Origin: Candidatus Woesearchaeota archaeon
GTDB lineage: Archaea > Nanobdellota > Nanobdellia > Woesearchaeales > GW2011-AR9
Direction of reading: 5' to 3'
DNA length: 64,000 nucleotides
Assembly (NCBI GenBank): GCA_018302605.1
Contig: JAGVZN010000010.1
Coordinates: 65,013-129,012 of the forward strand
The notes under the pieces are model-generated. The model was not told the DNA's origin. It ran no database searches and saw only the letters and a list, made by a program, of their open reading frames with translations. Both the position numbers and the translations under genes were made by a program. This document shows positions 8,690 to 60,742 of the stretch, piece after piece; positions within the stretch are counted from its first letter, which is position 1; each line of letters begins with the position of its first letter.

Positions 8690-8735
8690 GGTTAAAGCCA
8701 GGAGGAAAGCTGATTTAAAATACTTTCGCCGTCAG

Positions 8736-8905: not shown

Positions 8906-8918
8906 TTCGCTGTCGGAT

Positions 8919-9830
8919 TTACCATTGATCATCATCATGCCGTGTATACACGATCGTCTTCTTCCCGACAATCATCGAATGCTCAAACTGTGAAACTAAG
9001 CCGTTAGCAACTTCCACTAAAGGAGGATACGCATGCACGGATCCATTTTGCTGCAATTCACGCAGGCCGAAAGTGACTGCGCCTTTGCCTAATTTACGGG
9101 TCAGCCAGCGGGTGGTAAATGGCAGCCCTTGCAATGGCCTTACCTCTTCGAGGATTTTTCTGGCGTGCGGTGAACGCACACCTTTTTCCGTTTCCAGCAT
9201 GAAGATCGTTGACGGTGGTTTTTCTTTGATCAACCCTTTTCCGTTGGTGACAAATGGTTCGATGGCAATCTGCCAGTCTTCTTCTAATTCAGTCTTGTCT
9301 TTATTGTTGTAAGAGGGAATAGAGATGCCGTCGTGAACTTTGTAGCGTCCGATGGTATGGCCGCAGAGATTTTTGACAGTAGTGAAGCCCATTTTCTCGG
9401 CTTCAGAATACTGTGCTTCGCCTAACTCCCATAATTGTCGCCCTGGTTCAACAAGCTTGATCGCCGCTTTGAGCGCGTTTTGCGCCGCTTTGATCAGATC
9501 AGGATGTTTGTTTGCTTTTCCTACTTCAATGGTCATTGCGTTGTCGGCGATGTAGCCGTCAAGATGAACGCCGATGTCGATCTTGACCACATCTCCTTCT
9601 TTCATGACTGTTTTGTCTTCATCATCAGGACAGAAATGGGCAGAAGTTTCATTGAGCGCCATCTGGGCCCAGGCAATCTGGCCGCCAAATTGTTGGATTC
9701 TCTTCTCACAGAAATCCATCACTTCCAGCGCGGAAGCGCCGGGGATGGTCAGTTTGGCGGCGCCTTCCCGGCGGACTTGAGAAGCGATCTTACCTGCTTT
9801 GAGAATTTTCTGCAGTGTTTCGGGAGACAT
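8919..9830 (-). CDS. map: methionine aminopeptidase, type 2 (archaeal)
   Basis: 303 aa with KIDIGVHLDGYIADNA and GHTIGRYKVHDGISIP typical of MetAP2. Confidence 0.9.
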   Translation of the reverse strand: MSPETLQKILKAGKIASQVRREGAAKLTIPGASALEVMDFCEKRIQQFGGQIAWAQMALNETSAHFCPDDEDKTVMKEGDVVKIDIGVHLDGYIADNAMTIEVGKANKHPDLIKAAQNALKAAIKLVEPGRQLWELGEAQYSEAEKMGFTTVKNLCGHTIGRYKVHDGISIPSYNNKDKTELEEDWQIAIEPFVTNGKGLIKEKPPSTIFMLETEKGVRSPHARKILEEVRPLQGLPFTTRWLTRKLGKGAVTFGLRELQQNGSVHAYPPLVEVANGLVSQFEHSMIVGKKTIVYTRHDDDQW

Positions 9831-9926
9831 GGTTTTATTTCCGTTACTGTTCTTATAAACTTTCCGTCTCCCTGATTATTCTGAAAGATAGAAAATTATA
9901 TAAACACCTTCTGCCCGTGGATTAAT

Positions 9927-10391
9927 ATGCGTATCAGTGAAATTGCCGGGGAAATAGCAGGGAATTACCCAAATGTAGCTGCTCTAGAGACGGCTGTTAC
10001 TCAAGCATATCGAGACCATTTTGCTCAATTTGATCCATCGCTTACCCCAAGAATACTACTTGACCGTCTGCAGGAAGGGGGTTATCTTTCCAGTTCGGAT
10101 AATAGTTTAATGGTTTCACCTGACGTCACTCTTCTGCCGCAAGGAAGGACAGATTGGTATGCTGTCCGAGAAGATAAGATTGCGGGTGGGGGACATACTC
10201 GTGTTTGGATTGACAAAGTTGGTTCTCAAGATGATTTGTGCGAATATCTTGAACTTGAGAGAGATCTAAATGGTAACAGTACTTTGGTGGAATTCTTTCA
10301 GGCAGCGAGTGATGCCCAAGTGCAAAAGAGAGCAGCAGTTTATGAAAATTTACATCACGAAGTGATCGTTGCCGACGAGCAGCCTCATTGA
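9927..10391 (+). CDS. hypothetical protein
   Basis: 154-aa ORF with no recognisable motifs. Confidence 0.4.
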   Translation: MRISEIAGEIAGNYPNVAALETAVTQAYRDHFAQFDPSLTPRILLDRLQEGGYLSSSDNSLMVSPDVTLLPQGRTDWYAVREDKIAGGGHTRVWIDKVGSQDDLCEYLELERDLNGNSTLVEFFQAASDAQVQKRAAVYENLHHEVIVADEQPH

Positions 10392-10592
10392 TCTTCTAAT
10401 CAAGTTCCAGATAACCTCACTTAGTCTCAAATTAAAGAAAATCCTGAAGAGCGACTATCCCCAACCCTGAAGGGTGGGGATTTACGCCGCTCTTCCGAGA
10501 CGGATTTTCTAAAATGAAATGTAGCGAAATCAATCGCAGCATTCATCCCCTACTATCAATAGTGGGGATTTCTGCTCATTTCATTTAAACAA

Positions 10593-11678
10593 TCACTTTC
10601 TTAGATTTTCCAGAAATTGTTTCTTTTCGTCTTCAGTCAAACCCCAAGCCGTTTCAATCCCATTCTTAATAACAGTATTGACAAAATCATTTCCATACAA
10701 TTTGCCAACCACATAGAGATTATGGGCAAGATCTCCATTTGACCACATTGCCGGATCGTCTGAACTTATCGTCACTGTGACACTCTGCTGCAATAAGTAG
10801 TCAAGGTGAAGATCGGCAATATCACTAATAAATGAACAGGTCAGGTTTGAGATCGGATTCGATTCCAGCCGTATTTTCCTTTCGCGCATCTTTTCGATCA
10901 ACTGTGGATGTTTCCAGAGGTGGATAGCGTGGCTGATACCGTCTGCGCGGAGATCATCAATGGCCGCGGCAAGATTTCTGACCCCCTCTTCTTCCGGACA
11001 CATCTCATCGGCGTGGACCGTGCGTTTTAACGAAGAATCAAACGTCAGGGCATATGCTTCTTTGAATTTTTCAGGCGGGAAAGGTGGTTCGTAGCAGGCA
11101 AGATCGATACCCACAACACCTCTTTCCGAAAAGTTCAATGCTGCTCTCACCATTTTCTTTGCTTCTTCGGGATCAACTTCACGATTGATGCAGATAATTG
11201 GTCTTACCTTCACTCCCTTCTCCTCCCCGCTTTGGGAAAATCCTTCCAACGCATAACCAATAACCTGATCGATCGACAATCCTTGCTGGGTATGATACCA
11301 CGGTGCGAAGCGTGATTCAGCATAGAGTGTTCCTTGGGATTTCAGATAGGTGCAATGGGCGACGGCCATCGCTTTAATATCCTCTTTTGTCTGCATCGCG
11401 CCGACGGGTATGGAAAAGACAGAGACAATGTCATATTTTGTGAACAGATTCGTTTGGAAAGAACGAAGTTCATCGGCTGATTTTATTTCCCGATCTCCCT
11501 CGACGCTTGTTCCATCGATATATTTTTCCGGAAGAAAGAGTTTTTTTCTGTTGTCCTGATAAAATCTCCAAAGATCGTCTGCAGGGATTGAGCCATCCCA
11601 ATGGATGTGGTTTTGAATGGTTGTGCGTCGGTGCAGGGAATCAAGATATTTCTGATCATCGAATTGAAGATTGTTCAT
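10593..11678 (-). CDS. adenosine/AMP deaminase family metallo-hydrolase
   Basis: HIHWDGS (HxHxDG), TVHADE, ISHAIHL and SSDDP motifs characteristic of the adenosine deaminase family. Confidence 0.75.
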   Translation of the reverse strand: MNNLQFDDQKYLDSLHRRTTIQNHIHWDGSIPADDLWRFYQDNRKKLFLPEKYIDGTSVEGDREIKSADELRSFQTNLFTKYDIVSVFSIPVGAMQTKEDIKAMAVAHCTYLKSQGTLYAESRFAPWYHTQQGLSIDQVIGYALEGFSQSGEEKGVKVRPIICINREVDPEEAKKMVRAALNFSERGVVGIDLACYEPPFPPEKFKEAYALTFDSSLKRTVHADEMCPEEEGVRNLAAAIDDLRADGISHAIHLWKHPQLIEKMRERKIRLESNPISNLTCSFISDIADLHLDYLLQQSVTVTISSDDPAMWSNGDLAHNLYVVGKLYGNDFVNTVIKNGIETAWGLTEDEKKQFLENLRK

Positions 11679-11902
11679 TTTCCAGAAGAAAAGTGAACAT
11701 CCTTTTTTAATTTTTATGAAAGCAACGGCTTAGTGGAAAAAGTCCCCCTGGCCATTGACCGTGGCGAAAACCAGCCGTGTTCATGGCTGCAGAACAGACC
11801 ATTCAATCTTATCATTTTCGCACTTGTTCCTGTCGATCGCTTCTCACGGTCAATCTTTAGGCCAAGCGGACGACTTTTTCTACTAAGCCGAAAGCAACTT
11901 CT

Positions 11903-13767: not shown

Positions 13768-13882
13768 AAGCTTACGGACGGCCATAGGGGCGCTTGTTAC
13801 CCGTTCCCATTTCGAACACGGAAGTCAAGGGCGTCTCCGTATCGGATTGTACTGCATTCCGCGGGAACTCCGGTAAGCTGTC
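13768..13882 (+). rRNA. rrn5: 5S ribosomal RNA (stand-alone)
   Basis: Contains CCCGTTCCCATTTCGAACACGGAAGTCAAGG (the universally conserved 5S loop/helix segment). Helix I pairs AGCTTAC (13769-13775) with GTAAGCT (13873-13879). Confidence 0.65.
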
Positions 13883-13980
13883 CACCTTTCTTTTTCTCTT
13901 TCTTCCTTTTTTTCTCTTTCTCGCGATTAAGCGAATGGAATGAGCGCATATCGCTTCGCTTTTCAAATGGTGTGACATTT

Positions 13981-14008
13981 GCGCAGGAACTCCGGTAAGC
14001 TGTCCACC
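13981..14008 (+). repeat. duplicated copy of the 5S rRNA 3' terminal segment
   Basis: GCGCAGGAACTCCGGTAAGCTGTCCACC repeats the 13861-13886 sequence ~120 nt downstream. Both copies are followed by pyrimidine-rich TTTCTTTTTCTCTTTC tracts. Confidence 0.5.
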
Positions 14009-14060
14009 TTCTTTTCTCTTTCTCCATACTTTTATATAATCTCCAGAATTAAAAGTCTGC

Positions 14061-14960: not shown

Positions 14961-15016
14961 AGTTCTCCCAGAAGTGCAGGATAAACAAATACAATATTCA
15001 CGATATCTGTTTTTCT

Positions 15017-15063
15017 GTATTTGTTTAGCTTTTCCGGCAGGCCGTGAGTGAGAGCGGAAAAAC
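15017..15063 (+). repeat. conserved ~47-nt intergenic motif (GTATTTGTTTAGCTTTTCYGGC...GGAAA), copy 1
   Basis: TGTATTTGTTTAGCTTTTCCGGCAGGCCGTGAGTGAGAGCGGAAAAAC. Contains the hairpin TTTTCCG...CGGAAAA. Related copies at 25041, 42138, 60525 and a partial copy at 31264. Confidence 0.6.
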
Positions 15064-15308
15064 AGCAAGTTCCTCACTTCAGAACAAGTCGGGGAACGAA
15101 CATTTTCCGCACATTAATCTTTGATGAGAAGTTTGAATAATTCAATTATTGATTTACAAACTTTTCAAGAGGAGGTGAAATAGTCGTAATTTTGGCTTGA
15201 ACCAAACGACTTATTTGCCAAAATTACTCTTTTTCAAACTCCTCTGATGTAAAGCTCTTATCTCACTCACTATTTAGCCCAGCCGCCAGCTAAAAAAATA
15301 CGTTTTTC

Positions 15309-29486: not shown

Positions 29487-29655
29487 CGCAACCTCAAACA
29501 CAGTGACTTTTTCCACAAAGCTCTCACATTAGGCACAATCCATTTTGTGAGTGATGGTGAGCCGTCGCTGAAGCCAATTTTAAGAAATTTCAGAGATACA
29601 GAAGAAAATTGGCCCAGTTCCAGTATTATTATAATCTCTTCTCCATCATCATTTC

Positions 29656-34224: not shown

Positions 34225-35262
34225 TTATCTTTCTTTTTTTCGATTTGATTTTATTTTCCTTCTAAGCATCAACCAGGCAGGGAGCAGAAAAATCAACAGG
34301 AAAATAAACATGGTCAGAATAAGGAAAGACCTATCTTCTCCACCCAGAAAATAAACTGCTCTGCATCTCTCTTTCACAAAAGTGTGATCATACCATTGGT
34401 CTTCCTCCGTTCCCGCACCGTCCAGACAGCCGAAATATCCGTGATGAAACAGAAATGCGGGGAGCAGCTTTGCCGTCTCTTCTGCTCTCTGAAGCGTCGT
34501 CCGGTTGTCATATTCAAAGACATATTCTGCCACTTCTGCCGGATGGTCGAGAGCATACTTCCAGCCGTTCAATGAAGCATCGACAAAATTCTGGACCATC
34601 TTTGGATCCTCTTTAATAAACTGCGTTGATGCCAAGATCAATCCTCCATGGTCATCAATTCCGTAATCTGCGGCTTCGATGATGTGCAGATCATGCCCTT
34701 CCAATTTCGCGGTGACGGGCAGGCCGAAGAAGGATCCGGCAAAGACATCGACCGTATCGTTATAAAAATACTGCGCATTCTCTTCGATGTTCACGATTTT
34801 GACTTCATTGCGCGGAACTCTGACGTTCTCCAGAACCCTTTCGATAACCGCTCTGCTGAGTTCACTGCGTATGCCGATCGTCTTCCCGGCAAAGTCTTTC
34901 GGTGTCTTGACTATTGAGTTGGCCAGCATGGTAAAGACCACCGGTGATTTCTGGTATACGGCCGCGACTGCTTTGATGTCGTAGCCTTCCGTCCTTGCTG
35001 TTTTTAGACCATCTCGGCTGGCGATGCCAAACTCCGCGCCAGTTCTGAACATTTCTTCTCCGATATTGGTGGTGGAATTGCCTTCGATGAATCGAACATC
35101 GAGATTTGCATCGTGGTAATATCCCTGATGCAGCGCGGCGTAGTATCCAGCAAAAAGAAAATCGTGCTGATAATAGAGCTGGATGCGGATCGGTGTCGTC
35201 TGATGCGCCGCAGACACGAATAAAGTGAACGAGAAGATCAGCAGGATGCCGATGGCTAGCAT
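34225..35262 (-). CDS. NMT1/THI5-like (SsuA-type) substrate-binding protein with C-terminal TM anchor
   Basis: Signal peptide MLAIGILLIFSFTLFVSA. Periplasmic-binding-protein-like core. C-terminal hydrophobic anchor plus basic tail. Confidence 0.55.
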   Translation of the reverse strand: MLAIGILLIFSFTLFVSAAHQTTPIRIQLYYQHDFLFAGYYAALHQGYYHDANLDVRFIEGNSTTNIGEEMFRTGAEFGIASRDGLKTARTEGYDIKAVAAVYQKSPVVFTMLANSIVKTPKDFAGKTIGIRSELSRAVIERVLENVRVPRNEVKIVNIEENAQYFYNDTVDVFAGSFFGLPVTAKLEGHDLHIIEAADYGIDDHGGLILASTQFIKEDPKMVQNFVDASLNGWKYALDHPAEVAEYVFEYDNRTTLQRAEETAKLLPAFLFHHGYFGCLDGAGTEEDQWYDHTFVKERCRAVYFLGGEDRSFLILTMFIFLLIFLLPAWLMLRRKIKSNRKKER

Positions 35263-35322
35263 TTTCTTCGCCGTCCGAGAAGATCAGCAGGATGCCGATG
35301 GCTAGCATTTTCTTCGCCGTCT
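35231..35322. repeat. 46-bp tandem duplication spanning the 5' end of the substrate-binding-protein gene
   Basis: Unit GAGAAGATCAGCAGGATGCCGATGGCTAGCATTTTCTTCGCCGTC(C/T) occurs at 35231-35276 and again at 35277-35322. It duplicates the MLAIGILLIFS codons and separates the upstream ATG (35329) from the ORF by a non-multiple-of-3 length. Confidence 0.65.
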
Positions 35323-42137: not shown

Positions 42138-42183
42138 GTATTTGTTTAGCTTTTCTGGCGGGCCGTGCATCTGAGCGGAAATC
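42138..42183 (+). repeat. conserved ~47-nt intergenic motif, copy 3
   Basis: TGTATTTGTTTAGCTTTTCTGGCGGGCCGTGCATCTGAGCGGAAATC. Its hairpin keeps pairing through a C-to-U change (G-U wobble) relative to copy 1. Confidence 0.6.
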
Positions 42184-42300
42184 TGCTACCATTTCATCTG
42201 CATCACGCTGTAGATTAGATGATTTCCGCACCAAGTTAGGAATCACGCATCTTCAGATGCACCGCTTGGCCCAGCCACCAGTTAAACAAATACTCATTCT

Positions 42301-44425: not shown

Positions 44426-44584
44426 GGCTTGTTCCATAGAGCGTTCAGCAGATAAAAAATAAAAATCCCAAGCACCGCAAGCGGCGGGGTATTTTTAATG
44501 TTTAATACCCCGCTCTGCTGTGGGAAGAAAAGTTAACCCCATCGCCCCAAGGGGCGGGGTATCAAACAAATAAAGAGGTGAAAC

Positions 44585-44698: not shown

Positions 44699-45590
44699 AT
44701 TTCTTGCTTGGGTACCATACCCCGCAGTTCTACTGCGATGTTGATTCCAAGCAAGATTAAAAAATACCCCGGAGCTCTGCTCCGATTGGGATTTTTTATT
44801 TTTTTTCTTTATTTTTTGGATGATGTAGTCTTATGTAGACTTTATGCATAAACTCCCCCTCCCGCGCTCTACTATCTCTTGGTAATCCATTTACATTAAA
44901 TAGACCAGAAAGCCTCTTCTTTTAAGATGAGGATGAATGGGCTTTCTAGCCTATTTATGTCACAAAGTGCGGGGATTAGAAAGCGTCTCATGGTTAGAAA
45001 ATAATAAATACCATGATATATTTCTACTCTCCGTGCCGGACACTTCGGTTGTCCTGGAAAGGATGCGTCCATCGCAGCCTCTGTCAGATGTTCACCATTA
45101 ATCGTGTGGCTGGACTATAACTCACGCGACGAAACCTACATTTGGTACGCTTCTTTGATGGCGCGAAGCAGATCACCGTTAAAACAAACCAGTAGGTTAA
45201 GTTTCGATATTGGGCGTTGTTTGCGGCACTCCTTCACCGAGTCCAGAGCACACTTTAACGTATGACTCCAACAACGCGATCAGGCAAAAAAAGAAAGAAA
45301 CAAGGACCTAAATTGCGGCAGAAAAGACCGTCACGAGGTTCTCGTTCTTCCTCTTCTTCTTCTGCGCGGAAAAGCCCCCGTCAGGCTAGTGGTAAAGCCA
45401 AAGATTCTAAAGTGGTGAAATTAGTCCGTCTTTCTAAAAAGAATCGACGGAATGGTTATAATACTTCATTGAAAAAATCCAGCAGATCGCCGTTGTCAAA
45501 ACTGGCTAACCGTCTGCATTCCAGGAAACGACGATAACCGTCATCATTCTCCGGTGGAGGTAACAACAGGTTAGATAGTTGAGATTCTTT

Positions 45591-48283: not shown

Positions 48284-48619
48284 TTAAGATAATTTGGTTT
48301 GTTTTCCGTCTTGGATTCCTTTTTCTAACGCTTTTAATCTGGTGCAGATAATCATTCTAAATCTTGAGATGCCTTCGATTGACACGCTATTGTTCATTTT
48401 AAGCTTCTCTGCCAGAGCAAAACGCTCTTGATGTGATTTTAAGACCGTGAATTTATACTCATGATCATCTTTTCTTATTTTGAGGGTAATGTTACCTTTT
48501 GGGGTTGTTCCTTTTTCGATTATTTTCTCTTTTAATCTTAATCTACGCTTAAACTCTTTTATTTTCCTCTCTTTGTTGGCAAGTACAGTCAAGCGGTCGA
48601 TGAGGGTGGTGTCAATCAT
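48284..48619 (-). CDS. hypothetical protein
   Basis: Start taken at the ATG at 48617-48619 (MIDTTLIDRL...), which overlaps the stop of the upstream minus-strand gene by 8 nt. The track's longer ORF begins at 48685. Confidence 0.4.
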   Translation of the reverse strand: MIDTTLIDRLTVLANKERKIKEFKRRLRLKEKIIEKGTTPKGNITLKIRKDDHEYKFTVLKSHQERFALAEKLKMNNSVSIEGISRFRMIICTRLKALEKGIQDGKQTKLS

Positions 48620-49097
48620 GTTTAAGTTCCTCATAAATCTCCAGCAACGCATCTTTATGCCCCCAGCCATCACAACTGTTATCAATAATAGAATCTAATC
48701 TTCCTTTAAATTTTGGTATTAAATCAGAATTATTATTTAACATCTTAATTATCTGCTCAAACATGGTTTCCATACTGGAGTAAAACGCTTCATACATATC
48801 GCCGTATTCATGATCAATCTTTTCTCCATTTTCAAGATAAAAAATCATTAATTCCAAAAGGTGCTCTTGATTTTTAGATATTTTCTTAAAGTCAACGAGT
48901 GCTTTTCTTGCTTCACGAAGATTTGTCTTTTCCTGCCACAAAGCCTCTTTTATTTTTTGTTTATAATAGGTTATAGCCTCATCGGCTCCACTTTGCAGTT
49001 TTAACTTTAAGAAATCAGCATTTTCTTTTCGTAATGAAGATAATTCTAAAAGAAGCGCGTATAATTCTTCTTTTCCTAATTTTTTGAGTTCTTTCAT
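48612..49097 (-). CDS. hypothetical protein (161 aa)
   Basis: Its ATG overlaps the stop of zinc-ribbon gene 1 (ATGA at 49094-49097). Confidence 0.5.
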   Translation of the reverse strand: MKELKKLGKEELYALLLELSSLRKENADFLKLKLQSGADEAITYYKQKIKEALWQEKTNLREARKALVDFKKISKNQEHLLELMIFYLENGEKIDHEYGDMYEAFYSSMETMFEQIIKMLNNNSDLIPKFKGRLDSIIDNSCDGWGHKDALLEIYEELKHD

Positions 49098-49213
49098 TGC
49101 AGGATCTTGTCAAAACATTTATCGCACATACCGACGTGCCATTCTTTATTATGTGCAGAGATTTTGGCACTGCATTGTTTGCAGTTGTAATTCATCTCTT
49201 CGGTGTTCTTCAT
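49094..49213 (-). CDS. small zinc-ribbon protein (39 aa), copy 1
   Basis: MKNTEEMNYNCKQCSAKISAHNKEWHVGMCDKCFDKILQ (CxxC...CxxC). Stop overlaps the next gene's start. Lies inside a ~180-nt direct repeat. Confidence 0.55.
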   Translation of the reverse strand: MKNTEEMNYNCKQCSAKISAHNKEWHVGMCDKCFDKILQ

Positions 49214-49257
49214 GTGAATGGTACGTTCTTTTACCGGTGAGGGTGGTTTGGGGCATA

Positions 49258-50127
49258 TTATTTTGGCTTATCCTCCAATTCTTCCGTTTCTTTCTCTAAT
49301 CTTTTCTTCTTTGTTAAATCTAGGTGATTTTCTGGAGAAATAACTTTAATTCCGAATGTTTTTTCGGCATCAGCTCTCGCTCTTCCAGCAACTTTTCCGC
49401 CTTCTTTGGCCGCATCCAATCCCTCAGCAAAGCCTTGAACTTCTTTCTTGCGCGTAGCTTCGGTGGTAAGCCTTTCACCGAGCATTGAAAAAATTAACTC
49501 TAAGTCATTCATGTGATCTCTGAGATTTTGATTTTTGAATTTTGGATCAAGCCTTTTTATCTCTTTGTGAATCTTTATAGGTACTCCAAAAGTAGCCTGA
49601 GAAATCTCGTTGGTTAAAATGGCGTATTCTCTCAGCTCTCCAATACCCCTTTTTTTCCATTCCTCAGTCAATTCCTGTCTGATGGCAATGCCTCTTAACC
49701 TCTTATCAATCCAATCTTTAGGATAGCCTTTAAGCTCATAATATTCTTTAGCTCTATCTTGTGCTAATTCAGGATTTTCAATCTCTTGAATGCGTTCATA
49801 ACCAACTTGTGCCAGCCAGCGCTTGAATGGCTCGACTTTCTTAGAGGGAATCGATTGGATTAATCTTAACATGGTCTCCGTATTTGCACTGTCAGTCTCC
49901 CTTAATTTACCATCTTCTGCTGGCATTTTCAACAGTACGATTTTATCGTACGGTTCAAATCCTTCTTCTAGAAGCTTAGCTTTTAGGTCAGACCAATATC
50001 TTTTTGGAAGGGAACTGTCTGTCAAGACTGCTACAATATCTATGACGGAGAAGTGCCATTCCTCTTTGTGCCATAACCGGCGAATGTTTTTGCCTTCAAA
50101 GATAACTAAAGCGTTTTTTTGATTCAT
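49258..50127 (-). CDS. Bro-N domain protein (phage antirepressor-like), paralog 2
   Basis: N-terminal Bro-N-like IRRLWHKEEWHFSVIDIVAVLTDS...LRLIQSIPSKKVEPFKRWLAQVG. ~50% identical to the ORF at 51596-52453. Confidence 0.65.
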   Translation of the reverse strand: MNQKNALVIFEGKNIRRLWHKEEWHFSVIDIVAVLTDSSLPKRYWSDLKAKLLEEGFEPYDKIVLLKMPAEDGKLRETDSANTETMLRLIQSIPSKKVEPFKRWLAQVGYERIQEIENPELAQDRAKEYYELKGYPKDWIDKRLRGIAIRQELTEEWKKRGIGELREYAILTNEISQATFGVPIKIHKEIKRLDPKFKNQNLRDHMNDLELIFSMLGERLTTEATRKKEVQGFAEGLDAAKEGGKVAGRARADAEKTFGIKVISPENHLDLTKKKRLEKETEELEDKPK

Positions 50128-50249
50128 TATTTTTCCACCATCTTGTCAAAACATTTATCGCACAGATTGGCGTGCCATTCTTTATTATGTGCAGAGATTT
50201 TGGCACTGCATTGTTTGCAGTTGTAATTCATCTCTTCGGTGTTCTTCAT
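50127..50249 (-). CDS. small zinc-ribbon protein (40 aa), copy 2
   Basis: MKNTEEMNYNCKQCSAKISAHNKEWHANLCDKCFDKMVEK. Its TAA overlaps the Bro-N paralog-2 ATG (TAATG). Confidence 0.55.
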   Translation of the reverse strand: MKNTEEMNYNCKQCSAKISAHNKEWHANLCDKCFDKMVEK

Positions 50250-50344
50250 GTGAATGGTACGTTCTTTTATCTTCTGGCAATTCTTTTCCGGTGAGGGTGG
50301 TTTGGGGCATATTATTTTGGCTTATCCTCCAATTCTTTCGTTTG

Positions 50345-51370
50345 TCATTTTCTACCGTTTTTTTTCCCAAATAATTTTTTGCTGAACTTGTCAAAATCAG
50401 AATTAAATAATCTGTCTTGAATAATCCTATATTTTTCAAACTCAGATTCAGCAAATTCTTTGGCAATCGCAGCAGTTACTTTGCCATGATTTTCTAAAAC
50501 TTCCCGACTATTAAATTTCAGAAACGCATTGAGTTTTTCTGCCCAATCTTTCATAGTTATGGGGATGTTTCTTTCTGCTTGATCTTCTGCAAAATCAAGA
50601 TACATGGTAACAATCCGATTTAAAGCTTTAATCTCATCTTGCTTTAGATAATTTTTAGCTATTGAAACATCGCTTTTGATGATTTTGCCTTGAGGGGCAT
50701 TCTTCCAAGTAGTTAACCCCATATACTCTTTTTTTGAATCTGCCCGTTTCAATACTAATTCCGGCGCTGTATGCTGATGAATGGCATAGTGCATCTTATT
50801 CTGGACTGTTGCAAAAAACTCTGTAGTGGTTCTTGAATTTTTATCATAATCCATGCTGGTAGCATAAATATCTGTTATTTTTTGATAAAAATTTCGTTCA
50901 CTGGCTCTAATTTCCCTTATTTCTTCCAGCAGATAATCAAAGTATTGCTTATTTAAAAACGAGCCATTTTTCAACCTTTCTCTATCTAAAACGTATCCTT
51001 TTATAGCAAATTCTTTTAAAACAGTAGTTGCCCAGATTCTGAATTGGGTTGCCCTTTGCGAATTTACCCGGTATCCTATTGAGATAATAACGTCTAAGTT
51101 ATAGAATTTAGTACTATATTCTTTCCCATCTGAAGCAGTATGTCGGAAATCCCGACAAACTGAATTTTCATCTAATTCCCCAGTATCAAATATCTCTCTG
51201 AGGTGTTCAGTAATAGTGCTTCTTCCTTTATCAAAAAGCTTAGCAATCATCTGCTGGGAAAGCCAAACGGTTTCATCTGCGTACTTTACTTCGATAGACT
51301 CTTCTCCTGACTGTGCGGTAAATATCAGGAATTCGGCAGTGCTGTTTCGGATGGCGAGGTCTTTAGTCAT
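50345..51370 (-). CDS. RhuM-family protein
   Basis: MTKDLAIRNSTAEFLIF...VWLSQQMIAKLF...YNLDVIISIGYRVNSQRATQFRIWATTVLKEF, which I recall as matching the RhuM/virulence-protein family. Confidence 0.65.
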   Translation of the reverse strand: MTKDLAIRNSTAEFLIFTAQSGEESIEVKYADETVWLSQQMIAKLFDKGRSTITEHLREIFDTGELDENSVCRDFRHTASDGKEYSTKFYNLDVIISIGYRVNSQRATQFRIWATTVLKEFAIKGYVLDRERLKNGSFLNKQYFDYLLEEIREIRASERNFYQKITDIYATSMDYDKNSRTTTEFFATVQNKMHYAIHQHTAPELVLKRADSKKEYMGLTTWKNAPQGKIIKSDVSIAKNYLKQDEIKALNRIVTMYLDFAEDQAERNIPITMKDWAEKLNAFLKFNSREVLENHGKVTAAIAKEFAESEFEKYRIIQDRLFNSDFDKFSKKLFGKKNGRK

Positions 51371-51595
51371 TTTTCTTCTCCGGTGAGGGTGTTGGGGGCA
51401 TTTTATTCTCTTTTGACATCTCTTTCCACCTCTTTTTTAACTATTAGGAATTTCCGAATAGTTGATTGCTCATCTAATTCTTGATGTCTGCTTCTATTTT
51501 TGCTTATCTGATAAAGTCATGAAAGTGCGGGCAAGTCTTTTCTGTATGAATACCACAACAGCTTAATACATTGCTGACCAGACATGAATAATGAT

Positions 51596-52453
51596 TTAGT
51601 TATTTGAGTCATCTTTATCGTGTTTTATCCTTTTTTTATCAGTAAAATGTATTTCTTTGGCATCCTTTGAAGTGACAACTTTTTCTCCAAGCCTTTTTTC
51701 AATTCTGTCTTTTGCAACTCTGGCAGTTTTTCCGCCTTCTCTAGCGATTTCTTTGCTTTTTCCAAGTGTTGCAGGGTTTTCTTTCTCAGAGATTTCTTTT
51801 GTGGTCGCTTCTGCAAGCATGTTCAGGATAAGTTCAATATTGGTCATATTATCCCTTAAGTTTTCTTTTTTCAGACCTTTAAATTGCTTATACTCTTTGA
51901 CTGTCTTGCCAGCCCATGCTTTGGTAATCTCAGTGGTAAGAATAGCAAAATCTTCCTGTTTTGAAATGCCAACCCTGTTCCATTCATCAGTTAATTGTTT
52001 TCTGATTTCAATCGTTTTGAGTCTCTGATTTATCCATTCCTCAGAATATCCTTTTTGCAGATAAGTTCTCATAGCTCTATCAATAGATAGTTCTGGATCT
52101 TCAGTTTCATCAATTCTTTCTCTTCCAACCCTTGCCAGCCACATTTTGAAAGGTTCTGCCTTTTTTGAGGGGATTGATTGGATTAATCTTAAAAGCTGTC
52201 CTGTGTCGGCAACATCAGTTAGGTAAAATTTGCCATCCGACGACTGCATCTTCAGTCGGTTACAATTTGTAACCAACTCATCTCCTTCTTTTCTGAGCCT
52301 GAATTTGAGGACTTTCCAATAATTATTAGGACTTGGACTATCTGTCAACACTTCAATAACATCAATAATAGAAAAATACCATTTCTCTTCATCTTCTCTC
52401 CACTGCGTCCGTACTTTCTTATCTTCAAAGAGCTTGATGGATTTCTCTGTCAT
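51596..52453 (-). CDS. Bro-N domain protein (phage antirepressor-like), paralog 1
   Basis: VRTQWREDEEKWYFSIIDVIEVLTDS...LRLIQSIPSKKAEPFKMWLARVG. Confidence 0.65.
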   Translation of the reverse strand: MTEKSIKLFEDKKVRTQWREDEEKWYFSIIDVIEVLTDSPSPNNYWKVLKFRLRKEGDELVTNCNRLKMQSSDGKFYLTDVADTGQLLRLIQSIPSKKAEPFKMWLARVGRERIDETEDPELSIDRAMRTYLQKGYSEEWINQRLKTIEIRKQLTDEWNRVGISKQEDFAILTTEITKAWAGKTVKEYKQFKGLKKENLRDNMTNIELILNMLAEATTKEISEKENPATLGKSKEIAREGGKTARVAKDRIEKRLGEKVVTSKDAKEIHFTDKKRIKHDKDDSNN

Positions 52454-52517
52454 GATATATTAAAACTATGGGGAGTATATAAGCCTTAGGCGTACTTGAC
52501 CAGTGGGCGAGTGGCTT

Positions 52518-52799
52518 TTATCTAATCCCAAACTTCTTACAAATGAGACACTTATTATTTCTCCAAGAAAATGTTCTCTTCTGCCACTCTTCATCTGAAA
52601 GGTTGCAGATAGTCTTATCAGATCGAATTAGAGTAAGGAATTTGTTGTGCGTCATCTCAACTCCTCGCATTTTCTTGGCCAGTTCCTGTAGTTTAGGAAT
52701 ATGGTCTTCTTGACGTTGTTCATCAAGATAGCATTTTCGAGTGCAATAATTACCATAGTACCAATTAACAAGTTGTTGGATAGGAACGGCTTTTTTCAT
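52518..52799 (-). CDS. small Cys-rich (zinc-finger-like) protein
   Basis: 93 aa with a CTRKC...CLICKKFG cysteine pattern. Overlaps the upstream gene by 4 nt. Confidence 0.4.
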   Translation of the reverse strand: MKKAVPIQQLVNWYYGNYCTRKCYLDEQRQEDHIPKLQELAKKMRGVEMTHNKFLTLIRSDKTICNLSDEEWQKRTFSWRNNKCLICKKFGIR

Positions 52800-53431
52800 T
52801 CCAACCTCCTTTGCATCTTTCTTTTGGAGGTTTCTGCAAGTCTTCCCTCTTCAGCTGCTCTTTTCCGTTGCAACTTTTGAATATCTTCTTCGGCGGGGAG
52901 ATTTTCTGGAACAATTTTATTTTTTAGTAAAACTTTTCGCATTTCGCTATTATTCTTTACGTGTTCTCCAGTTATTCGAATCTCTCCCTGAAGATTATTC
53001 TGCTTTACCTTAAAGTTAGTAATTTCTGTTGCGAGATTTTTGGCAGCGATGGTCACTGTTGGCAAGAAATCAGCTAATGGCCTGCTCTTTGGGATTTCTA
53101 ACTTCTTTTTCATTTGCGAAGTGTTCAAACCGCCGAATAACGCTTCATCCCCTTTGCTTCTGATTCGGGCAAAGCCGTTTTCGTCAACTCCTCGTTCATA
53201 AATTAGCTGAGATAACTCCGTTTCGGCTGCGATGAGCTTATTTCGAGCTTCAAGCCTTTCTCCTAAAGCTATCCTCTGCTCGATTATCTCCTGTTTTCTG
53301 GTTTGAACAGCAAAATAACTCTGGGCAAAGGCAATTTGTTCCTTTCTGGGATCGCCATTTTGAGCAATAAGATAGCAGGCATAGCGGGTAAGCATGAAAT
53401 CGTCTATTTCTTTTGTTGCTCCTTTCGGCAT
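52796..53431 (-). CDS. DinD/antirepressor-like hypothetical protein
   Basis: 211 aa. AQSYFAVQTRKQEI and the coiled-coil C-terminus resemble DNA-damage-inducible protein D-like and phage antirepressor C-terminal regions. Assigned from memory only. Confidence 0.4.
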   Translation of the reverse strand: MPKGATKEIDDFMLTRYACYLIAQNGDPRKEQIAFAQSYFAVQTRKQEIIEQRIALGERLEARNKLIAAETELSQLIYERGVDENGFARIRSKGDEALFGGLNTSQMKKKLEIPKSRPLADFLPTVTIAAKNLATEITNFKVKQNNLQGEIRITGEHVKNNSEMRKVLLKNKIVPENLPAEEDIQKLQRKRAAEEGRLAETSKRKMQRRLE

Positions 53432-53654
53432 AGCTATCGTTTTGTTGACGCCAACAAAATGATCTTCAATTCTCTGTTGAGATTTGTAACAGGAAATCTT
53501 AGCTTTTTCAATGACTTTTAGAAAATTCCTCCATTCATCATAGTCTAAAAGTAATGGTTTCTTTTTTCATTTAGATTCAAAGAAGAGGGTGGTATATAAA
53601 TATCATTTGTGGACTTGACCAGTGGGGAGTGGGTTCTCGATGCGTTGTTGAGAA

Positions 53655-54008
53655 GTGAAGATGATCCGGCTGGATTTCAAGAATCTGGGCGTGAACGGTC
53701 TCTACGGCTACAGTCAGGGTGGAAAAGTGGTTGTCTCTGCCAAAGACAGTGTGAACACGCAGGTAAACACGCTGGTTCATGAGATTACGCATGAACTACT
53801 CCATCACCCCAGTGATCTTACAGAACAGCAGAAAGAGATTGAGGCTGAGGGAACGGCGTACGTGGTGTGTAAGCATTTTGGTCTTTCGACCAAGAGCTTC
53901 ACCTATCTGGCCATGTACAAAGCTGACTCCAAAGAGATCATGGCTCATTTGGAAGCGATTGCGAGGGCGAGTAAGGAGGTGATTGAATTTTTGATTTTTA
54001 TTTTTTAG
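53655..54008 (+). CDS. ImmA/IrrE-family (DUF955) zinc metallopeptidase-like protein
   Basis: HEITHELLHH HExxH motif in a ~117-aa protein. GTG start. TATA-like GGTATATAAAT sits 60 nt upstream. Confidence 0.5.
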   Translation: MKMIRLDFKNLGVNGLYGYSQGGKVVVSAKDSVNTQVNTLVHEITHELLHHPSDLTEQQKEIEAEGTAYVVCKHFGLSTKSFTYLAMYKADSKEIMAHLEAIARASKEVIEFLIFIF

Positions 54009-54045
54009 ATGTAAGAGTTTTTCTGTTTGCATTATACATAGCTTT

Positions 54046-54114
54046 TTGGAAGTTAAATTTTTCGATTTGGAAGTTAAATATTTGTAACTTGGAAGTTAAG
54101 ACCAAACTTTATAT
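54046..54114 (+). promoter_or_regulatory. three phased direct repeats TTGGAAGTTAA(A/G) followed by a TTTATATA box
   Basis: Repeats at 54046-54058, 54067-54079 and 54089-54100 (21-22 bp period). TTTATATA at 54107-54114 lies ~24 nt upstream of the ATG at 54138. Confidence 0.45.
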
Positions 54115-54137
54115 AACGCCTAGTTTCTCCTCTAGTC

Positions 54138-54278
54138 ATGTCAAAAAAGATGGTGGCTGATAGTCCTAATAATTTTACCTTTACTGCATTAAGGGGCATC
54201 CAAGCAGGCAGAGAATATTATGCCGTAATGTGTCCTCTACGACTTATCCCACGAATGTTCTTGTTTAATGTTTCATAA
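54138..54278 (+). pseudogene. N-terminal fragment of a DGQHR/DndB-like domain protein (46 codons)
   Basis: MSKKMVADSPNNFTFTALRGIQAGREYYAVMCPLRLIPRMF matches, from memory, the conserved N-terminal RG-Q-G-R-YY...MCPL region of DndB/DGQHR proteins. The reading frame stops after 46 codons. Confidence 0.35.
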
Positions 54279-54369
54279 AATCCTTCAAATTCATGTTCTT
54301 GAAAGCCATTCATTAATTTTTGTTTGTTCATTTTGTATTTCACGGTGTTTTCTTTTAAATGTTTTAAAT

Positions 54370-55830
54370 CTATCTTATTCTATTGATTTTTCCTAACTCT
54401 CCCACAATCCAAACCATCGCTTCTGTATCCCTTTCACAATAGCGAAGCAAGTCTTCCCTGATCTTCTTTCTAGCTGAAGCAGTCAGTTCACCAAATGTCA
54501 TATCTAAGTAGGCAATAGAAGCACAATCTCCATCTTTAATATCCAAACCTTCATATCCTTTCCCTACCAGAGCAGGTAGAACTTTCTTGATGGAAGCAGA
54601 GCCTTTCTGCTTGGGGTTGTAATAAAGGAAATCCTTAAAGGGTTTATACAAATCAACAATCCTTCCTAAGAGAACATCAACCCAGGCTGTATATTCTGGA
54701 AAATCTTTTACTAACTCTTTCAATACTGACCCCTCAAAGCCTTCAAAGTACACTAATACGCTTCCAGAAGCAGGTAAATATTCTTTCAAAGCCGCCAGAA
54801 ACTTAGGTCGAGGATCATCCTTGCCATCGTGCAGGTACTCAAAATGTTTCGTTTTACCATTCTCAACTACATGCAGAGAAAACTGAAACGGCATCCGTTG
54901 ATACGGTCTTGTTCCCTGAAACTCAGGAACTGCAAACGAACACGTTTCAAAATCAAGATGGCAGGCTGGTTCTCGAATTCCATCTAAAAATTTCTTAATT
55001 CTAGCCTTCTCGAGATGAATCTCACCACTTTTCTCACATTTTAATTGAATAACTTGTTGCTCATTAGACAGAACATCATCAGGAACATCTTTCAAAGCAT
55101 GAATTCCTTGCTCAAATAGTTTCATACTTTTTCTGCTGTTATACAAGTGAAAGACATGATTCTCAGGTAGAAAACCCCAACACTCTTCCTTCACTTGGCA
55201 CTTTTTTGGGATAGTGCAGTAATTCTTCTCTGCACTATTTGGGAAAGTAGGGGAATTAACAATACCCCACAGAAATTCAATATTCTTTGGTACTTCATAC
55301 TGCAATTCTTCTACATCTTCGGTCAAATCCTCTTGGACAAATAGTTTATGAACATCAATTTCTCCATCTCGAACGTATTGATTATTCAACAGCAGAAGAA
55401 AGCATTTTCTGATCTTCAAACCAGCTTTTCTATAGACGTATAATTGAAATGATAAATCCCAGTAATGGTCCTTCTTAATTTTGCTACTGCTTTTGACTTC
55501 AATAATATCCCATTCATCTTTACCCACAGGAACGAGAATATCCGCTCTGCCATAGAGGTTATCTACTTGCAGAGCGGCTTCAAAGAGAATTTTTCGTTTT
55601 TTGAGCAGTTCTTTTGATTTCTGAATATTTTCAAGATAATCTGCTTCGGGAATATCGATTCCCTGAGGAAAGAGTTTCTTTGCCCATTGTCCGACGATCC
55701 TTCCTTGTTCAAATCTTCTCAGAACGCCGGGTGAATGGGGAGGAATATTTTCTTCATCATGATACTTCATCCATAGGTGTCCCGGGCATTCCATTCCTGT
55801 TGTGTAATCGGATTTGGAGAGTGGTTTCAT
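54370..55830 (-). CDS. DUF2779-family protein: N-terminal PD-(D/E)xK (Cas4/RecB-like) nuclease domain plus C-terminal DEDD-like exonuclease domain
   Basis: LSKSDYTTGMECPGHLWMKYH, ADILVPVGKDEWDIIEVKSS (D...EVK) and HLDFETCSFAVPEF...RPYQRMPFQFSLH. Confidence 0.65.
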   Translation of the reverse strand: MKPLSKSDYTTGMECPGHLWMKYHDEENIPPHSPGVLRRFEQGRIVGQWAKKLFPQGIDIPEADYLENIQKSKELLKKRKILFEAALQVDNLYGRADILVPVGKDEWDIIEVKSSSKIKKDHYWDLSFQLYVYRKAGLKIRKCFLLLLNNQYVRDGEIDVHKLFVQEDLTEDVEELQYEVPKNIEFLWGIVNSPTFPNSAEKNYCTIPKKCQVKEECWGFLPENHVFHLYNSRKSMKLFEQGIHALKDVPDDVLSNEQQVIQLKCEKSGEIHLEKARIKKFLDGIREPACHLDFETCSFAVPEFQGTRPYQRMPFQFSLHVVENGKTKHFEYLHDGKDDPRPKFLAALKEYLPASGSVLVYFEGFEGSVLKELVKDFPEYTAWVDVLLGRIVDLYKPFKDFLYYNPKQKGSASIKKVLPALVGKGYEGLDIKDGDCASIAYLDMTFGELTASARKKIREDLLRYCERDTEAMVWIVGELGKINRIR

Positions 55831-56326
55831 GTACGTATTAATTCCTCTGTTTTGTTGATGAAATCTAACACTTTGTCTTCGTAGTCTTCTACCATTTCCC
55901 TGCTAAACTTAATATTTGTGGCATAACTGGCTTCATGCCTGTCCTCTTTAAGGTTGGTGTAGAGTTCTGCATCCTCTTTGCTTATAGACAGTTCATGTAA
56001 TAGTTTTGCTTCATCTTTCGTGATAGAATATTCCTGGATAAGGATTAGAATTGTGGCATAGTGATTTTTGGAGGAATAATTTCTATTTGTAATGAGTGCC
56101 AAAGCACAATGGTATATGCGTAATATAACGTTACAATAAGCCAATCATTGAATTTGTGGTGTTCTTTGTTTAGTTTGTAGAATTCCAGATTATGCCTTGC
56201 TTTTTTAAGATGAGAGTTCACCAATTCTTTGTTTTCTTGAATCTTTTTGATATGCTTTTTGGTAATGAAGAAGTCTAGCTCTTGTCCTAAATATTTTTGG
56301 TCTGCAAATAATTTATCAATATTCAT
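55827..56326 (-). pseudogene. HEPN-domain toxin gene split by a frameshift
   Basis: The first frame (56326-56045) carries the N-terminal helix. The second frame (56144-55827) carries ILRIYHCALALITNRNYSSKNHYAT...KEDRHEASYA, a HEPN R-x-H...Y-like C-terminus. The two overlap over 56045-56144. Confidence 0.5.
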
Positions 56327-56906
56327 TTAGAATAACCTCATAGAAATTTTGTTCTTTGTGAATGGGGAAGCCTGTTTTTCTCGCTTGCATAATCAGATCA
56401 TCTTTGTTCTTGATAAATTGATCCGTAGTTGTTTGAAATAGGGAGAATGGATATTTTGAGGTTATTTCGGCTTCTTTTTTATTTTCTGTTAAGTCTATTT
56501 TTTTATTAGCTACTATCAATAGGTCTATATCACTTCTGTTTTGTTCTTCCTTTCTGGAAGTTGAGCCAAAGATGATGATAGTATACGTTTCTGTAGGGAT
56601 ATTTTTGAGAAAGTTTCTGAGGGGAACTTTTACTCCCAGGTTTAAGCGGTTGAACTTTTGCATTGCTATTTCTGAAAATTTAAGAGCAAACAGTTTCTTA
56701 TCTTTTACTTTATAGAAAGTATTTGATTTAGTTTTTTCTTGGTTCAGGGTATTATTTCTTACCAGTTTTGTTAAGGTATTGGTTAAAGAGCTGTCGGAGA
56801 GCTGGGAGAGTTCTTTTATCTCGTTGAAGTATAAACTATTCTTTTTGCTTTCAAAATACGCGTGATATACTTTATCTTCTGGTTTCAGTTGTTGGGGGAT
56901 TTTCAT
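56316..56906 (-). CDS. minimal nucleotidyltransferase (MNT) domain protein, cognate partner of the HEPN gene
   Basis: IIIFGSTSRKEEQNRSDIDLLIV (GS...SDxDLL NTase motif). Overlaps the HEPN start by 11 nt. Confidence 0.6.
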   Translation of the reverse strand: MKIPQQLKPEDKVYHAYFESKKNSLYFNEIKELSQLSDSSLTNTLTKLVRNNTLNQEKTKSNTFYKVKDKKLFALKFSEIAMQKFNRLNLGVKVPLRNFLKNIPTETYTIIIFGSTSRKEEQNRSDIDLLIVANKKIDLTENKKEAEITSKYPFSLFQTTTDQFIKNKDDLIMQARKTGFPIHKEQNFYEVILNEY

Positions 56907-57004
56907 TTTAGACTGATACGGGGGGATTATTTATAAACACTTCTGTTTTTGGAGTGATTACTCCTGTTTTTGTGGTTTACTTGTTCAAATCGTTGGAGAA
57001 CAAT

Positions 57005-57107
57005 GGAACGGCGAGGCGGAATATTTTCTTTATCATGATACTTCATCCATAAGTGTCCTGGACATCCCATGCCGGTGGTGTAATCTGATTTGGAGAGTGG
57101 TTTCATG
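57005..57107 (-). pseudogene. duplicated 5' fragment of the DUF2779 gene
   Basis: 57016-57107 is ~88% identical to 55743-55830. It encodes MKPLSKSDYTTGMGCPGHLWMKYHDKENIPP...VLQRFEQ and then diverges and terminates. Confidence 0.6.
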
Positions 57108-57109
57108 GT

Positions 57110-57532
57110 TTAGTCCTCATGATGATAGAGCGTTACAATATCTTTAGTTTTTAAAATAATGACTTTATCTTGCTTTGCAAAATGCTTATCGTCAGACCAG
57201 ATAATAGAGTGTTCTTGACTTAATGCTGCGGCAATAAATGGGACGTCTTCAGGATCAATGTGTCCCATGATTCTTTTGGCTTCATTCCAATAAGCAGTCA
57301 ATTCTTCAGTAGGAATAAGCCTGATGAAGCGGAAGAGAGTATTGAGGATGATCAAAAATTCTGATTCGGAGATCCCGGACTTTGTAAGGATCAATTCTTT
57401 ATACTTTCTAATCTTATGGAAAGAGATCTCTGGAAAGCAGAAATCTTGTCCGGACTTGACAATTATTTCTCTCGTTGTAGAGTCTCTTATCAGTGCAGAA
57501 AGAAGAATATTGACATCAGTGATGATAATCAT
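57110..57532 (-). CDS. vapC: PIN-domain ribonuclease (VapC-like toxin)
   Basis: MIIITDVNILLSAL (Asp at position 6) with later acidic residues (WSDDKHF). Confidence 0.55.
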   Translation of the reverse strand: MIIITDVNILLSALIRDSTTREIIVKSGQDFCFPEISFHKIRKYKELILTKSGISESEFLIILNTLFRFIRLIPTEELTAYWNEAKRIMGHIDPEDVPFIAAALSQEHSIIWSDDKHFAKQDKVIILKTKDIVTLYHHED

Positions 57533-57541
57533 CGTGAAGCT

Positions 57542-57766
57542 TCAATCCCGATTTAGATCTTCAAATGTCTCTGCTTTTATTTTTCTGGAGATTGTGGAAA
57601 TATCTCTCTGAGTTAATTTGCTCTTCCTAGCGATTTTATCCATCATTTCCATCATTTCCATCTTCTGCGAGATCGATTTTCGGACTACTTCACTCCATCT
57701 AATTTCGGAGTGCTTTTTCATTCGTTCCTGCAGGTCGTCAGGCAAGGCTAAAGTTATATTTCCCAT
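57542..57766 (-). CDS. putative VapB-like antitoxin
   Basis: 74-aa ORF immediately upstream of the PIN gene. The N-terminal ITLALPDDLQERMKK resembles ribbon-helix-helix antitoxins. Confidence 0.4.
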   Translation of the reverse strand: MGNITLALPDDLQERMKKHSEIRWSEVVRKSISQKMEMMEMMDKIARKSKLTQRDISTISRKIKAETFEDLNRD

Positions 57767-60524: not shown

Positions 60525-60573
60525 GTATTTGTTTGGCTAGTGGCTGGGCCAAGCAGTGTATCCGAGCGGCAAA
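60525..60573 (+). repeat. divergent copy of the ~47-nt intergenic motif
   Basis: GTATTTGTTTGGCTAGTGGCTGGGCCAAGCAGTGTATCCGAGCGGCAAAT lies directly 5' of the TIR element. Confidence 0.45.
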
Positions 60574-60586
60574 TTTAATCCCCCCT

Positions 60587-60742
60587 TTAAATCGTACGTA
60601 TTAAGTCTGTGCTGGGCAGGTCGGCCTGCCTCGTCTCGCCCAGAAGCAGAGATCAGTTGAACTGAAGAGTTATTCTCAAAGATAAGCGAGACCATTCTTG
60701 ACCAAGCCCGCACAGACTTAACTTAATACGTACTTTAAATCG
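60587..60742. repeat. ~156-nt terminal-inverted-repeat element (MITE-like or structured RNA), copy B
   Basis: TTTAAATCGTACGTATTAAGTCTGTGCTGGGC...GCCCGCACAGACTTAACTTAATACGTACTTTAAATCG. The termini are ~30-nt inverted repeats. Homologous to 8736-8905. Confidence 0.55.

Follow-up and report, generated by a model that had tools for sequence, protein, structure and literature searches.

Paired intergenic hairpins in a groundwater woesearchaeon as very probable copies of a non-autonomous DNA transposon

Two hairpin-forming elements, copies A and B, lie about 52 kb apart in a 64,000-nucleotide stretch of a Candidatus Woesearchaeota genome (hereafter, the window). We conclude with high confidence that they are copies of a non-autonomous DNA transposon (MITE) resident in groundwater Candidatus Woesearchaeota (DPANN archaea). 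A preliminary description of the window had raised this reading, and it is supported by copies at non-orthologous sites, by 8-bp target-site duplications and by three empty sites. Relatives lack the element at the corresponding sites, so the finding is real, although it concerns mobile DNA of an ordinary sort: MITEs are already well known, including in archaea, and the present family (hereafter, family 1) adds a well-documented case and no new mechanism.

The two copies and the wider family

The window is archaeal, as indicated by a tRNA with a 22-nt intron (4032–4122, found by Rfam and not by ARAGORN) and a free-standing 5S rRNA (13774–13886). The 3' 46 nt of the latter are repeated at 13979–14024 (85% identical), possibly as a second, degenerate 5S. 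The methionine aminopeptidase (map) adjoining copy A is identical on groundwater metagenome contigs, and its closest named homologues are from Candidatus Woesearchaeota (93% and 88% identity), as are those of the M1 peptidase. Both copies are intergenic, as originally reported, with A between map and a 113-aa open reading frame (ORF) and B in the spacer between lpd and the M1 peptidase gene. The genes neighbouring the copies are housekeeping genes, and none encodes a transposase.

Direct reading of the sequences and a repeat search recovered both hairpin copies as described, with revised boundaries (Table 1). With the element delimited from G[T/C]A[C/G/T]GTATTAAG through the 12-nt outer part of the 3' arm, copy A, placed at 8736–8905 in the preliminary description, ends slightly further on, and copy B is shorter than the ~160 nt assigned to it, the earlier span of 60587–60742 having taken in both 8-bp duplications. 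The arms of the two copies are near-identical (24 nt at the 5' end and ~28 nt at the 3' end). They were recovered as inverted repeats of one another whose match is broken by two bulges, one of 5 nt (3' arm) and one of 1 nt (5' arm). In the repeat search the 5' 46 nt were 93% identical and the 3' 34 nt 91% identical, and the 20-mer GTATTAAGTCTGTGCTGGGC occurs twice in the window (up to 3 mismatches) against 0 occurrences expected by chance. The interiors are unlike, A being longer by about 34 nt, and an inner GTCTCGC/GCGAGA pairing, which had been noticed in both copies, proved invariant in eight copies.

A full-length family-1 element is ~173–176 nt long, contains no ORF, is almost fully self-complementary and is bounded by imperfect terminal inverted repeats of ~24–28 nt (GTACGTATTAAGTCTGTGCTGGGC ... 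GCCCRCACAGACTTAACTTAATACGTAC), for which 95–98% of cells are paired in helices 1–2 across eight copies. The 5' arm of copy A is identical in at least four copies from at least two species. Sizes among the copies range from 58 to 181 nt and none contains a gene-sized ORF, the sole ORF call inside any copy being one of 43 aa on the opposite strand in L051.

Table 1 Coordinates and sequences of family-1 copies and associated features; positions refer to the window.
Feature	Position	Strand	Detail
Copy A	8736–8908	+	173 nt, full-length, A-type subfamily, no coding capacity
Copy A, 5' terminal inverted repeat	8736–8759	+	GTACGTATTAAGTCTGTGCTGGGC
Copy A, 3' terminal inverted repeat	8881–8908	+	GCCCACACAGACTTAACTTAATACATTC, ends copy A at 8908
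Copy A, left target-site duplication	8728–8735		GCCGTCAG; degenerate, 6/8 match to 8909–8916
Copy A, right target-site duplication	8909–8916		GCTGTCGG; degenerate
Copy B	60594–60733	+	140 nt, B-type subfamily, derivative with 35-nt internal deletion
Copy B, 5' terminal inverted repeat	60594–60617	+	Same 24-mer as copy A
Copy B, 3' terminal inverted repeat	60706–60733	+	GCCCGCACAGACTTAACTTAATACGTAC, ends copy B at 60733
Copy B, left target-site duplication	60586–60593		TTTAAATC; 8/8 match to 60734–60741
Copy B, right target-site duplication	60734–60741		TTTAAATC
Copy B, 35-nt deletion junction	60693–60698	+	CCAT microhomology; GACCATTC/TTGACC vs full-length GACCATTC-ATTTTCTGTCCAATCGCAACGCTCGGCAGGCCATC-TTGACC
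47-nt motif	60525–60571 (end approximate)	+	GTATTTGTTTGGCTAGTGGCTGGGCCAAGC..., one-arm remnant of second MITE family, outside the element
Family-2 occurrences	42138–42293 (full); 15017–15301; 14980–14992(-); 25041; 31264; 60525		Several solo arms
MITE arm sequences			GTACGTATTAAGTCTGTGCTGGGC and GTATTTGTTTAGC
Flanking 8 nt, copy B			TTTAAATC / TTTAAATC, 8/8 identical
Flanking 8 nt, L011a			GGCTGTTT / GGCTGTTT, 8/8 identical
Flanking 8 nt, L012a			TTTTTGTC / TTTTTGTC, 8/8 identical
Flanking 8 nt, L025a			AGAACAAC / AGAACAAC, 8/8 identical
Flanking 8 nt, L012 short copy			TTCTTTTT / TTCTTTTC, 7/8 identical
Flanking 8 nt, copy A			GCCGTCAG / GCTGTCGG, 6/8 identical
Flanking 8 nt, L008			5/8 identical
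Flanking 8 nt, L025b			3/8 identical; 6/8 after 1-nt shift
Insertion sites named			Window A, window B, L011a, L008, L010, L012 (two), L025 (two), L040, L051
A-type subfamily			Window A, L012a, L010
B-type subfamily			Window B, L011a, L025a/b, L008, L040; 86–98% identical
Pairs changed on both sides			Alignment columns 4/178 in L011a; 26/157; 30/153; 37/140 in L008 and L051

The preliminary description had proposed a BLAST count of copies, and further copies did turn up in several genomes, at sites that are not orthologous. In the GTDB genome collection, an 18-mer from the 5' arm had four matches, two of them chance matches in bacteria and two in the Woesearchaeota metagenome-assembled genome (MAG) GCA_016203205.1 (L008 and L010). 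A 17-mer scan of metagenome contigs returned 36 loci, among which BLAST against the whole element identified true copies in L011 (two), L012 (two), L025 (two) and L040. An nhmmer profile built from seven full copies added a diverged copy in L051 (E = 2e-24) and confirmed the others, with E = 1e-50 for copy A and 1.6e-41 for copy B. The total is 13 distinct insertion sites in at least five Woesearchaeota lineages. L011/L055 and L054 belong to the species of the window (99% identity over 3.4 kb), and the remaining copy-bearing loci have no nucleotide-level coding-sequence similarity to it. Copy numbers per genome look modest, with two copies in 64 kb, a third ~0.6 kb beyond the end of the window, and two exact-arm matches in the representative MAG.

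The copies fall into two subfamilies, A-type and B-type, that differ mainly in the apical ~50 nt. The A-type copy L012a (L012 7475–7647) is 93.6% identical to copy A and sits at another site. At site B the element is full-length (175 nt) in L054 and L011/L055, contigs of the same species; copy B is therefore an internal 35-nt deletion derivative. In the alignment of the window with L054, the missing ATTTTCTGTCCAATCGCAACGCTCGGCAGGCCATC lies between CCAT microhomologies, and its loss takes out one side of a GGCCTGCC/GGCAGGCC helix. A 58-nt arms-only derivative in L012 has its own 7/8 duplication, and the copies in L010 and L040 are interrupted by other short repeats. The near-identity of copies within one species (97–100%) suggests recent activity; no within-species presence/absence polymorphism was seen, copy A being present in 5/5 same-species contigs.

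In L025 (9182–10816), a single gene (9399–10634) lies closely between two full copies of like orientation, a composite-transposon-like layout in which each copy nevertheless has its own flanking repeat. The bracketed ORF was considered as a transposase and rejected, since a Pfam scan identified it as a metallophosphoesterase.

Target-site duplications and empty orthologous sites

A search for target-site duplications, also suggested in the preliminary description, revealed direct repeats of 8 bp. Summed over eight copies, the left and right flanks were identical at 53 of 64 positions at offset 0 compared to only 13–27 at offsets of ±1 to 6. Mismatched left and right flanks shared ~2 of 8 positions, and when the right flanks were permuted, virtually no arrangement but the true one attained 53. 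The duplication was perfect in four copies.

We compared three sites with orthologous loci in related genomes, GCA_016203205.1 and GCA_016181265.1. All three are empty in GCA_016203205.1, and in each case the filled sequence minus the empty one equals the element plus one 8-bp duplication. At site A, the distance from the map stop codon to the start of the 113-aa ORF (minus strand) is 229 nt in the window, and the same gene pair is 45–48 nt apart in L047 (GCA_016203205.1), L048, L049 (GCA_016181265.1) and L051. The empty site aligns as TGGTAAAT-CTTACAGC-GAAAGTATTTTAAATC, with GAAAG after CTTACAGC, and the filled site in the window reads TGGTAAAT-CCGACAGC-(173-nt element)-CTGACGGC-GAAAGTATTTTAAATC, with GAAAG after CTGACGGC; L047 has a single CTTACAGC (minus strand) where the left duplication of copy A sits. 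At site B, a block just upstream of the M1 peptidase gene, AAATCGTAATCTTTATTAACCTTTAAAA, is conserved in L056 and L057, and in both contigs the conserved promoter block AAATCGTAATCTTTATTAACC is preceded by one TTTAAATC-like 8-mer. L057 reads CTTTTAAATC followed at the junction by GTAATC, with a single TTTAAATC directly before the conserved GTAATCTTTATTAACC, and the window reads TTTAAATC-(element)-TTTAAATC-GTAATC. At the third site, that of L011a about 0.6 kb past the right end of the window, taking the element and a single GGCTGTTT out of L055 gives a sequence whose alignment to L057 is ungapped across the junction. Since GCA_016203205.1, which lacks the element at all three sites, has its own copies elsewhere (L008 and L010), the family is present in both lineages at different places.

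These observations leave scarcely any credence for an ancient segmental duplication or chance similarity without mobility: only two copies occur in the 64-kb window, as such an origin would have it, but the similarity between A and B ends exactly at the inverted-repeat ends with unrelated flanks beyond, and there are 13 insertions in several genomes, with target duplications and empty sites.

The MITEs of Sulfolobus and Haloquadratum are non-autonomous elements with target duplications whose inverted repeats match those of resident insertion sequences (IS), and for Sulfolobus the IS partners have been identified. Family 1 is likewise non-autonomous in archaea, but differs from these elements in phylum and sequence, and no IS partner was found for it here. 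MITEs are known from Sulfolobus (SM1–SM4), Haloquadratum and other archaea (PMC10969869), and we applied the MITE-defining features given in the same source. The closest counterpart in dimensions is QMITE2 of Coxiella burnetii, with direct repeats of 7–9 bp, terminal inverted repeats of 23–29 bp and a core of 113–145 bp (PMC10969869), compared to an 8-bp duplication, inverted repeats of 24–28 nt and a core of ~120 nt here. Both are non-coding, intergenic and multicopy, and in both the whole element forms a very stable stem-loop. Family 1 differs in lacking sequence similarity to QMITE2, in its archaeal (DPANN) host, and in being not AT-rich overall, with GC-rich stems; no parent IS was found for it. 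A census of MITEs ranked a Woesearchaea genome among the MITE-densest archaeal genomes, with 105 cMITEs/Mb (PMC11602168, NAR 2024), and the presence of at least three hairpin families in 64 kb of the same host group and element class fits this high density. The census is a bulk MITE-Tracker catalogue and contains no empty-site or subfamily analysis of family 1. In our literature search we found no paper linking MITEs with Woesearchaeota specifically, and the one paper retrieved with the arm sequence was an unrelated one on plants.

The mobile elements of these small DPANN genomes are barely characterized beyond bulk censuses, and the clean filled and empty sites reported here document what appears to be an active or recently active MITE family in this group. 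They also explain several conserved intergenic hairpins in these MAGs that might otherwise be taken for ncRNA genes or have spurious small ORFs called within them, such as the 43-aa ORF in L051. Housekeeping genes such as lpd and the M1 peptidase gene have insertions immediately upstream of their core promoters, with possible effects on expression, and the elements are possible strain-level markers for Woesearchaeota populations.

Further hairpin families in the window

The 47-nt motif upstream of copy B is a terminal arm belonging to another MITE family (hereafter, family 2), which is unrelated in sequence to family 1 and also has 8-bp duplications. The motif aligns to the arm of the family-2 copy at 42138–42293 and to L040 782–937. 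With up to 1 mismatch allowed, the window contains the family-2 arm GTATTTGTTTRGC 9 times (0.19 expected). Two of these arms, in facing orientation at 42138 and 42293, delimit a 156-nt hairpin (z = −7.0); L040 782–937 is conserved with it at 77% and has a perfect 8-bp flanking repeat, TAACTTTT. Copy B had been described as abutting the motif; the two do share a spacer, but ~14 nt (the GGCAAATTTAATCCCCCC region) separate the motif from the left duplication. The further suggestion, that the motif might be a preferred insertion target or part of a composite element, was not sustained, as none of the other ~11 family-1 copies adjoins it, and a composite element was rejected on this ground. The motif is also absent from the lpd/M1 spacer in L056 (111 nt) and L057. 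The motif and copy B lie together because two insertions occurred independently in a single divergent-promoter region that tolerates them. Elsewhere in the window, the longer family-2 copy at 15017–15301 appears to contain a nested insert (15126–15245).

A third hairpin element of ~170 nt was observed at 11729–11897 (z = −5.0) and, 89% identical, at L040 9413–9577. Its arms are CTTAGTGGAAAAAGTC.../...GACTTTTTCTACTAAG, with GAAAGCAAC on each side in the window, and it shares with family 2 an inner GCGRAAA...TTTYCGCAC hairpin and the motif GGCCAAGCGG. One genome thus contains three sequence-unrelated families of ~155–175-nt hairpins with 8–9-bp flanking repeats. A subterminal GRCCAAGC/GCTTGGYC lies ~25–32 nt from the ends in all three, in the form GACCAAGCCC in family 1 and GGCCAAGCGG in families 2 and 3, and could be a common protein-binding site.

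Two smaller repeats accompany these families. A short GC-rich hairpin repeat, ATACCCCGCCGCTTGCTGCGATTGGGAT, is present in several copies and both orientations (4542–4579, 44457–44571 and 44743–44801; L010 122–158 and 7676–7732), one of them nested within the interrupted MITE copy of L010. An intergenic sequence of ~95 nt (29534–29629; L008 7785–7880; L012 7668–7752) is 84–92% conserved among three otherwise unalignable genomes, directly adjoins a MITE copy in L012, and has no Rfam or tRNA match.

Mobilization, hairpin folding and alternative readings

A fixed 8-bp duplication is a classic mark of staggered cleavage by DDE transposases, and HUH-type (IS200/IS605-like) elements make no duplications. 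We infer that family 1 is moved by a DDE-type transposase, through cut-and-paste or copy-and-paste transposition, that would be encoded elsewhere by a related IS; the element itself has no gene, so the enzyme would have to act in trans. Such a transposase would bind both arms, cut the target with an 8-bp stagger and insert the element, and repair of the gaps would then create the duplication.

Pfam scans of 30 ORFs (those of the low-GC island at 48.6–57 kb, the neighbours of every copy, and the ORFs of L008, L010 and L040) detected no transposase. An autonomous partner would be a transposase gene flanked by these inverted repeats, and neither the window nor ~130 kb of related loci nor the viral contigs yielded one. 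The window contained no extra solo family-1 arms, and two arm scans of viral contigs yielded no copy and one chance match in a high-GC coding region. These negative results mean little, because only a small fraction of any genome was inspected. IS66, in the ISfinder family table, has ends that begin GTAA and duplications of 8–9 bp. Family 1 resembles it in its 8-bp duplication and GTA(C/T) ends, and differs in that the ends read GTAC (family 1) or GTAT (family 2) and not GTAA; no IS66-type genes (tnpA/B/C) were seen in the ORFs scanned. We regard IS66 as a candidate parent that is only a lead, and claim no membership. Taxonomy does not narrow the choice of transposase, since Nanobdellota genomes collectively carry all 27 annotated IS families (PMC13343696).

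Copies A and B fold as long hairpins on either strand (−56 to −66 kcal/mol, z-scores of −5.7 to −7.4), with neither strand clearly better. In the eight-copy alignment, 42 pairs were predicted and 96.4% of cells were paired; 31 of the 42 pairs were invariant, and both-sided changes occurred in four, a count attained by 3 of 500 shuffles. One both-sided change falls 35–42 nt inside the element. The RNAalifold covariation term was +0.62, which is unfavourable. Of the folding and covariation analyses proposed in the preliminary description, the first thus confirmed long hairpins and the second gave weak covariation in favour of RNA structure. We attribute the hairpin to the transposon being palindromic, most simply as a by-product of that design; it would form a stable stem-loop in any read-through transcript. 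The four both-sided pair changes are not predicted by transposase binding alone, and count against a plain MITE reading, as do the modest copy numbers, the uniform presence of copy A within the species and the lack of an autonomous partner in the loci searched.

These changes, together with the architecture common to the three families, allow a more far-reaching proposal, which we consider unlikely although not negligibly so. Family 1 and the GTATTTGTTT and CTTAGTGGAAAAAGTC families, all ~155–175 nt long and self-complementary over their full length, with 8–9-bp duplications and a subterminal GGCCAAGC/GCTTGG, might be mobilized in these ~1-Mb symbiont genomes by one unrecognized transposase, perhaps encoded outside the Woesearchaeota genome and supplied by a virus or a host cell. 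The hairpin, maintained by paired substitutions, might itself serve as the substrate that is recognized, or as a functional RNA.

Somewhat more doubtful still is a mobile element that moves by means other than a classical DDE transposase acting on double-stranded inverted repeats, for example through a hairpin or single-strand intermediate recognized by another enzyme, or by an enzyme that a virus or the symbiotic host cell supplies in place of the reduced Woesearchaeota genome. It would accommodate the lack of a transposase in the loci examined, the full-length self-complementarity maintained by deep paired changes (columns 37/140 in L008 and L051), and the recurrence of one ~155–175-nt hairpin architecture with 8–9-bp flanking repeats in three unrelated families. 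The fixed 8-bp duplication, however, is the signature of staggered DDE cleavage and is not made by HUH-type elements, and the absence of a transposase carries little weight given the small genome fraction inspected and the full range of IS families in Nanobdellota.

We find it very improbable that the copies are instead two diverged paralogs of an immobile chromosomal gene for a structured ncRNA, with the hairpin as the functional RNA, the alternative entertained in the preliminary description. The hairpins are strong and conserved, the high pairing and the four both-sided changes rarely matched by shuffles are what such a gene would show, and copy A, copy B and L010 each have a TATA-like box ~23–29 nt ahead of the 5' end. 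This alternative is contradicted by the three precise empty sites in relatives and by the different 8-bp direct repeat at each copy, and the locations are not conserved between species. The flanks are target DNA, so that they differ from copy to copy together with their TATA-like boxes, and the box at copy A, which the empty site also has, doubles as a promoter box for the 113-aa ORF encoded on the opposite strand. The preponderance of invariant pairs, the unfavourable covariation term and the lack of strand preference in folding energy argue in the same direction. Rfam searches returned no match for the element at the gathering threshold (window and six loci) and only chance-level matches at E ≤ 10 (both copies), and by eye we saw no TGATGA C box of a C/D-box sRNA in either subfamily.

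Two further features of the window were observed alongside the non-autonomous transposon. A low-GC (36–40%) island at ~48600–57600 encodes two Bro-N proteins, a RhuM-family protein, a Cas4-like/DUF2779 protein, a nucleotidyltransferase and a PIN/RHH pair, contains near-identical internal repeats (49097/50133, 95%; 55739/57015, 89%), and is probably an integrated or defence island. At 35230–35321, a perfect 46-nt tandem duplication lies within an ORF region, where, its length not being divisible by 3, it would cause a frameshift.
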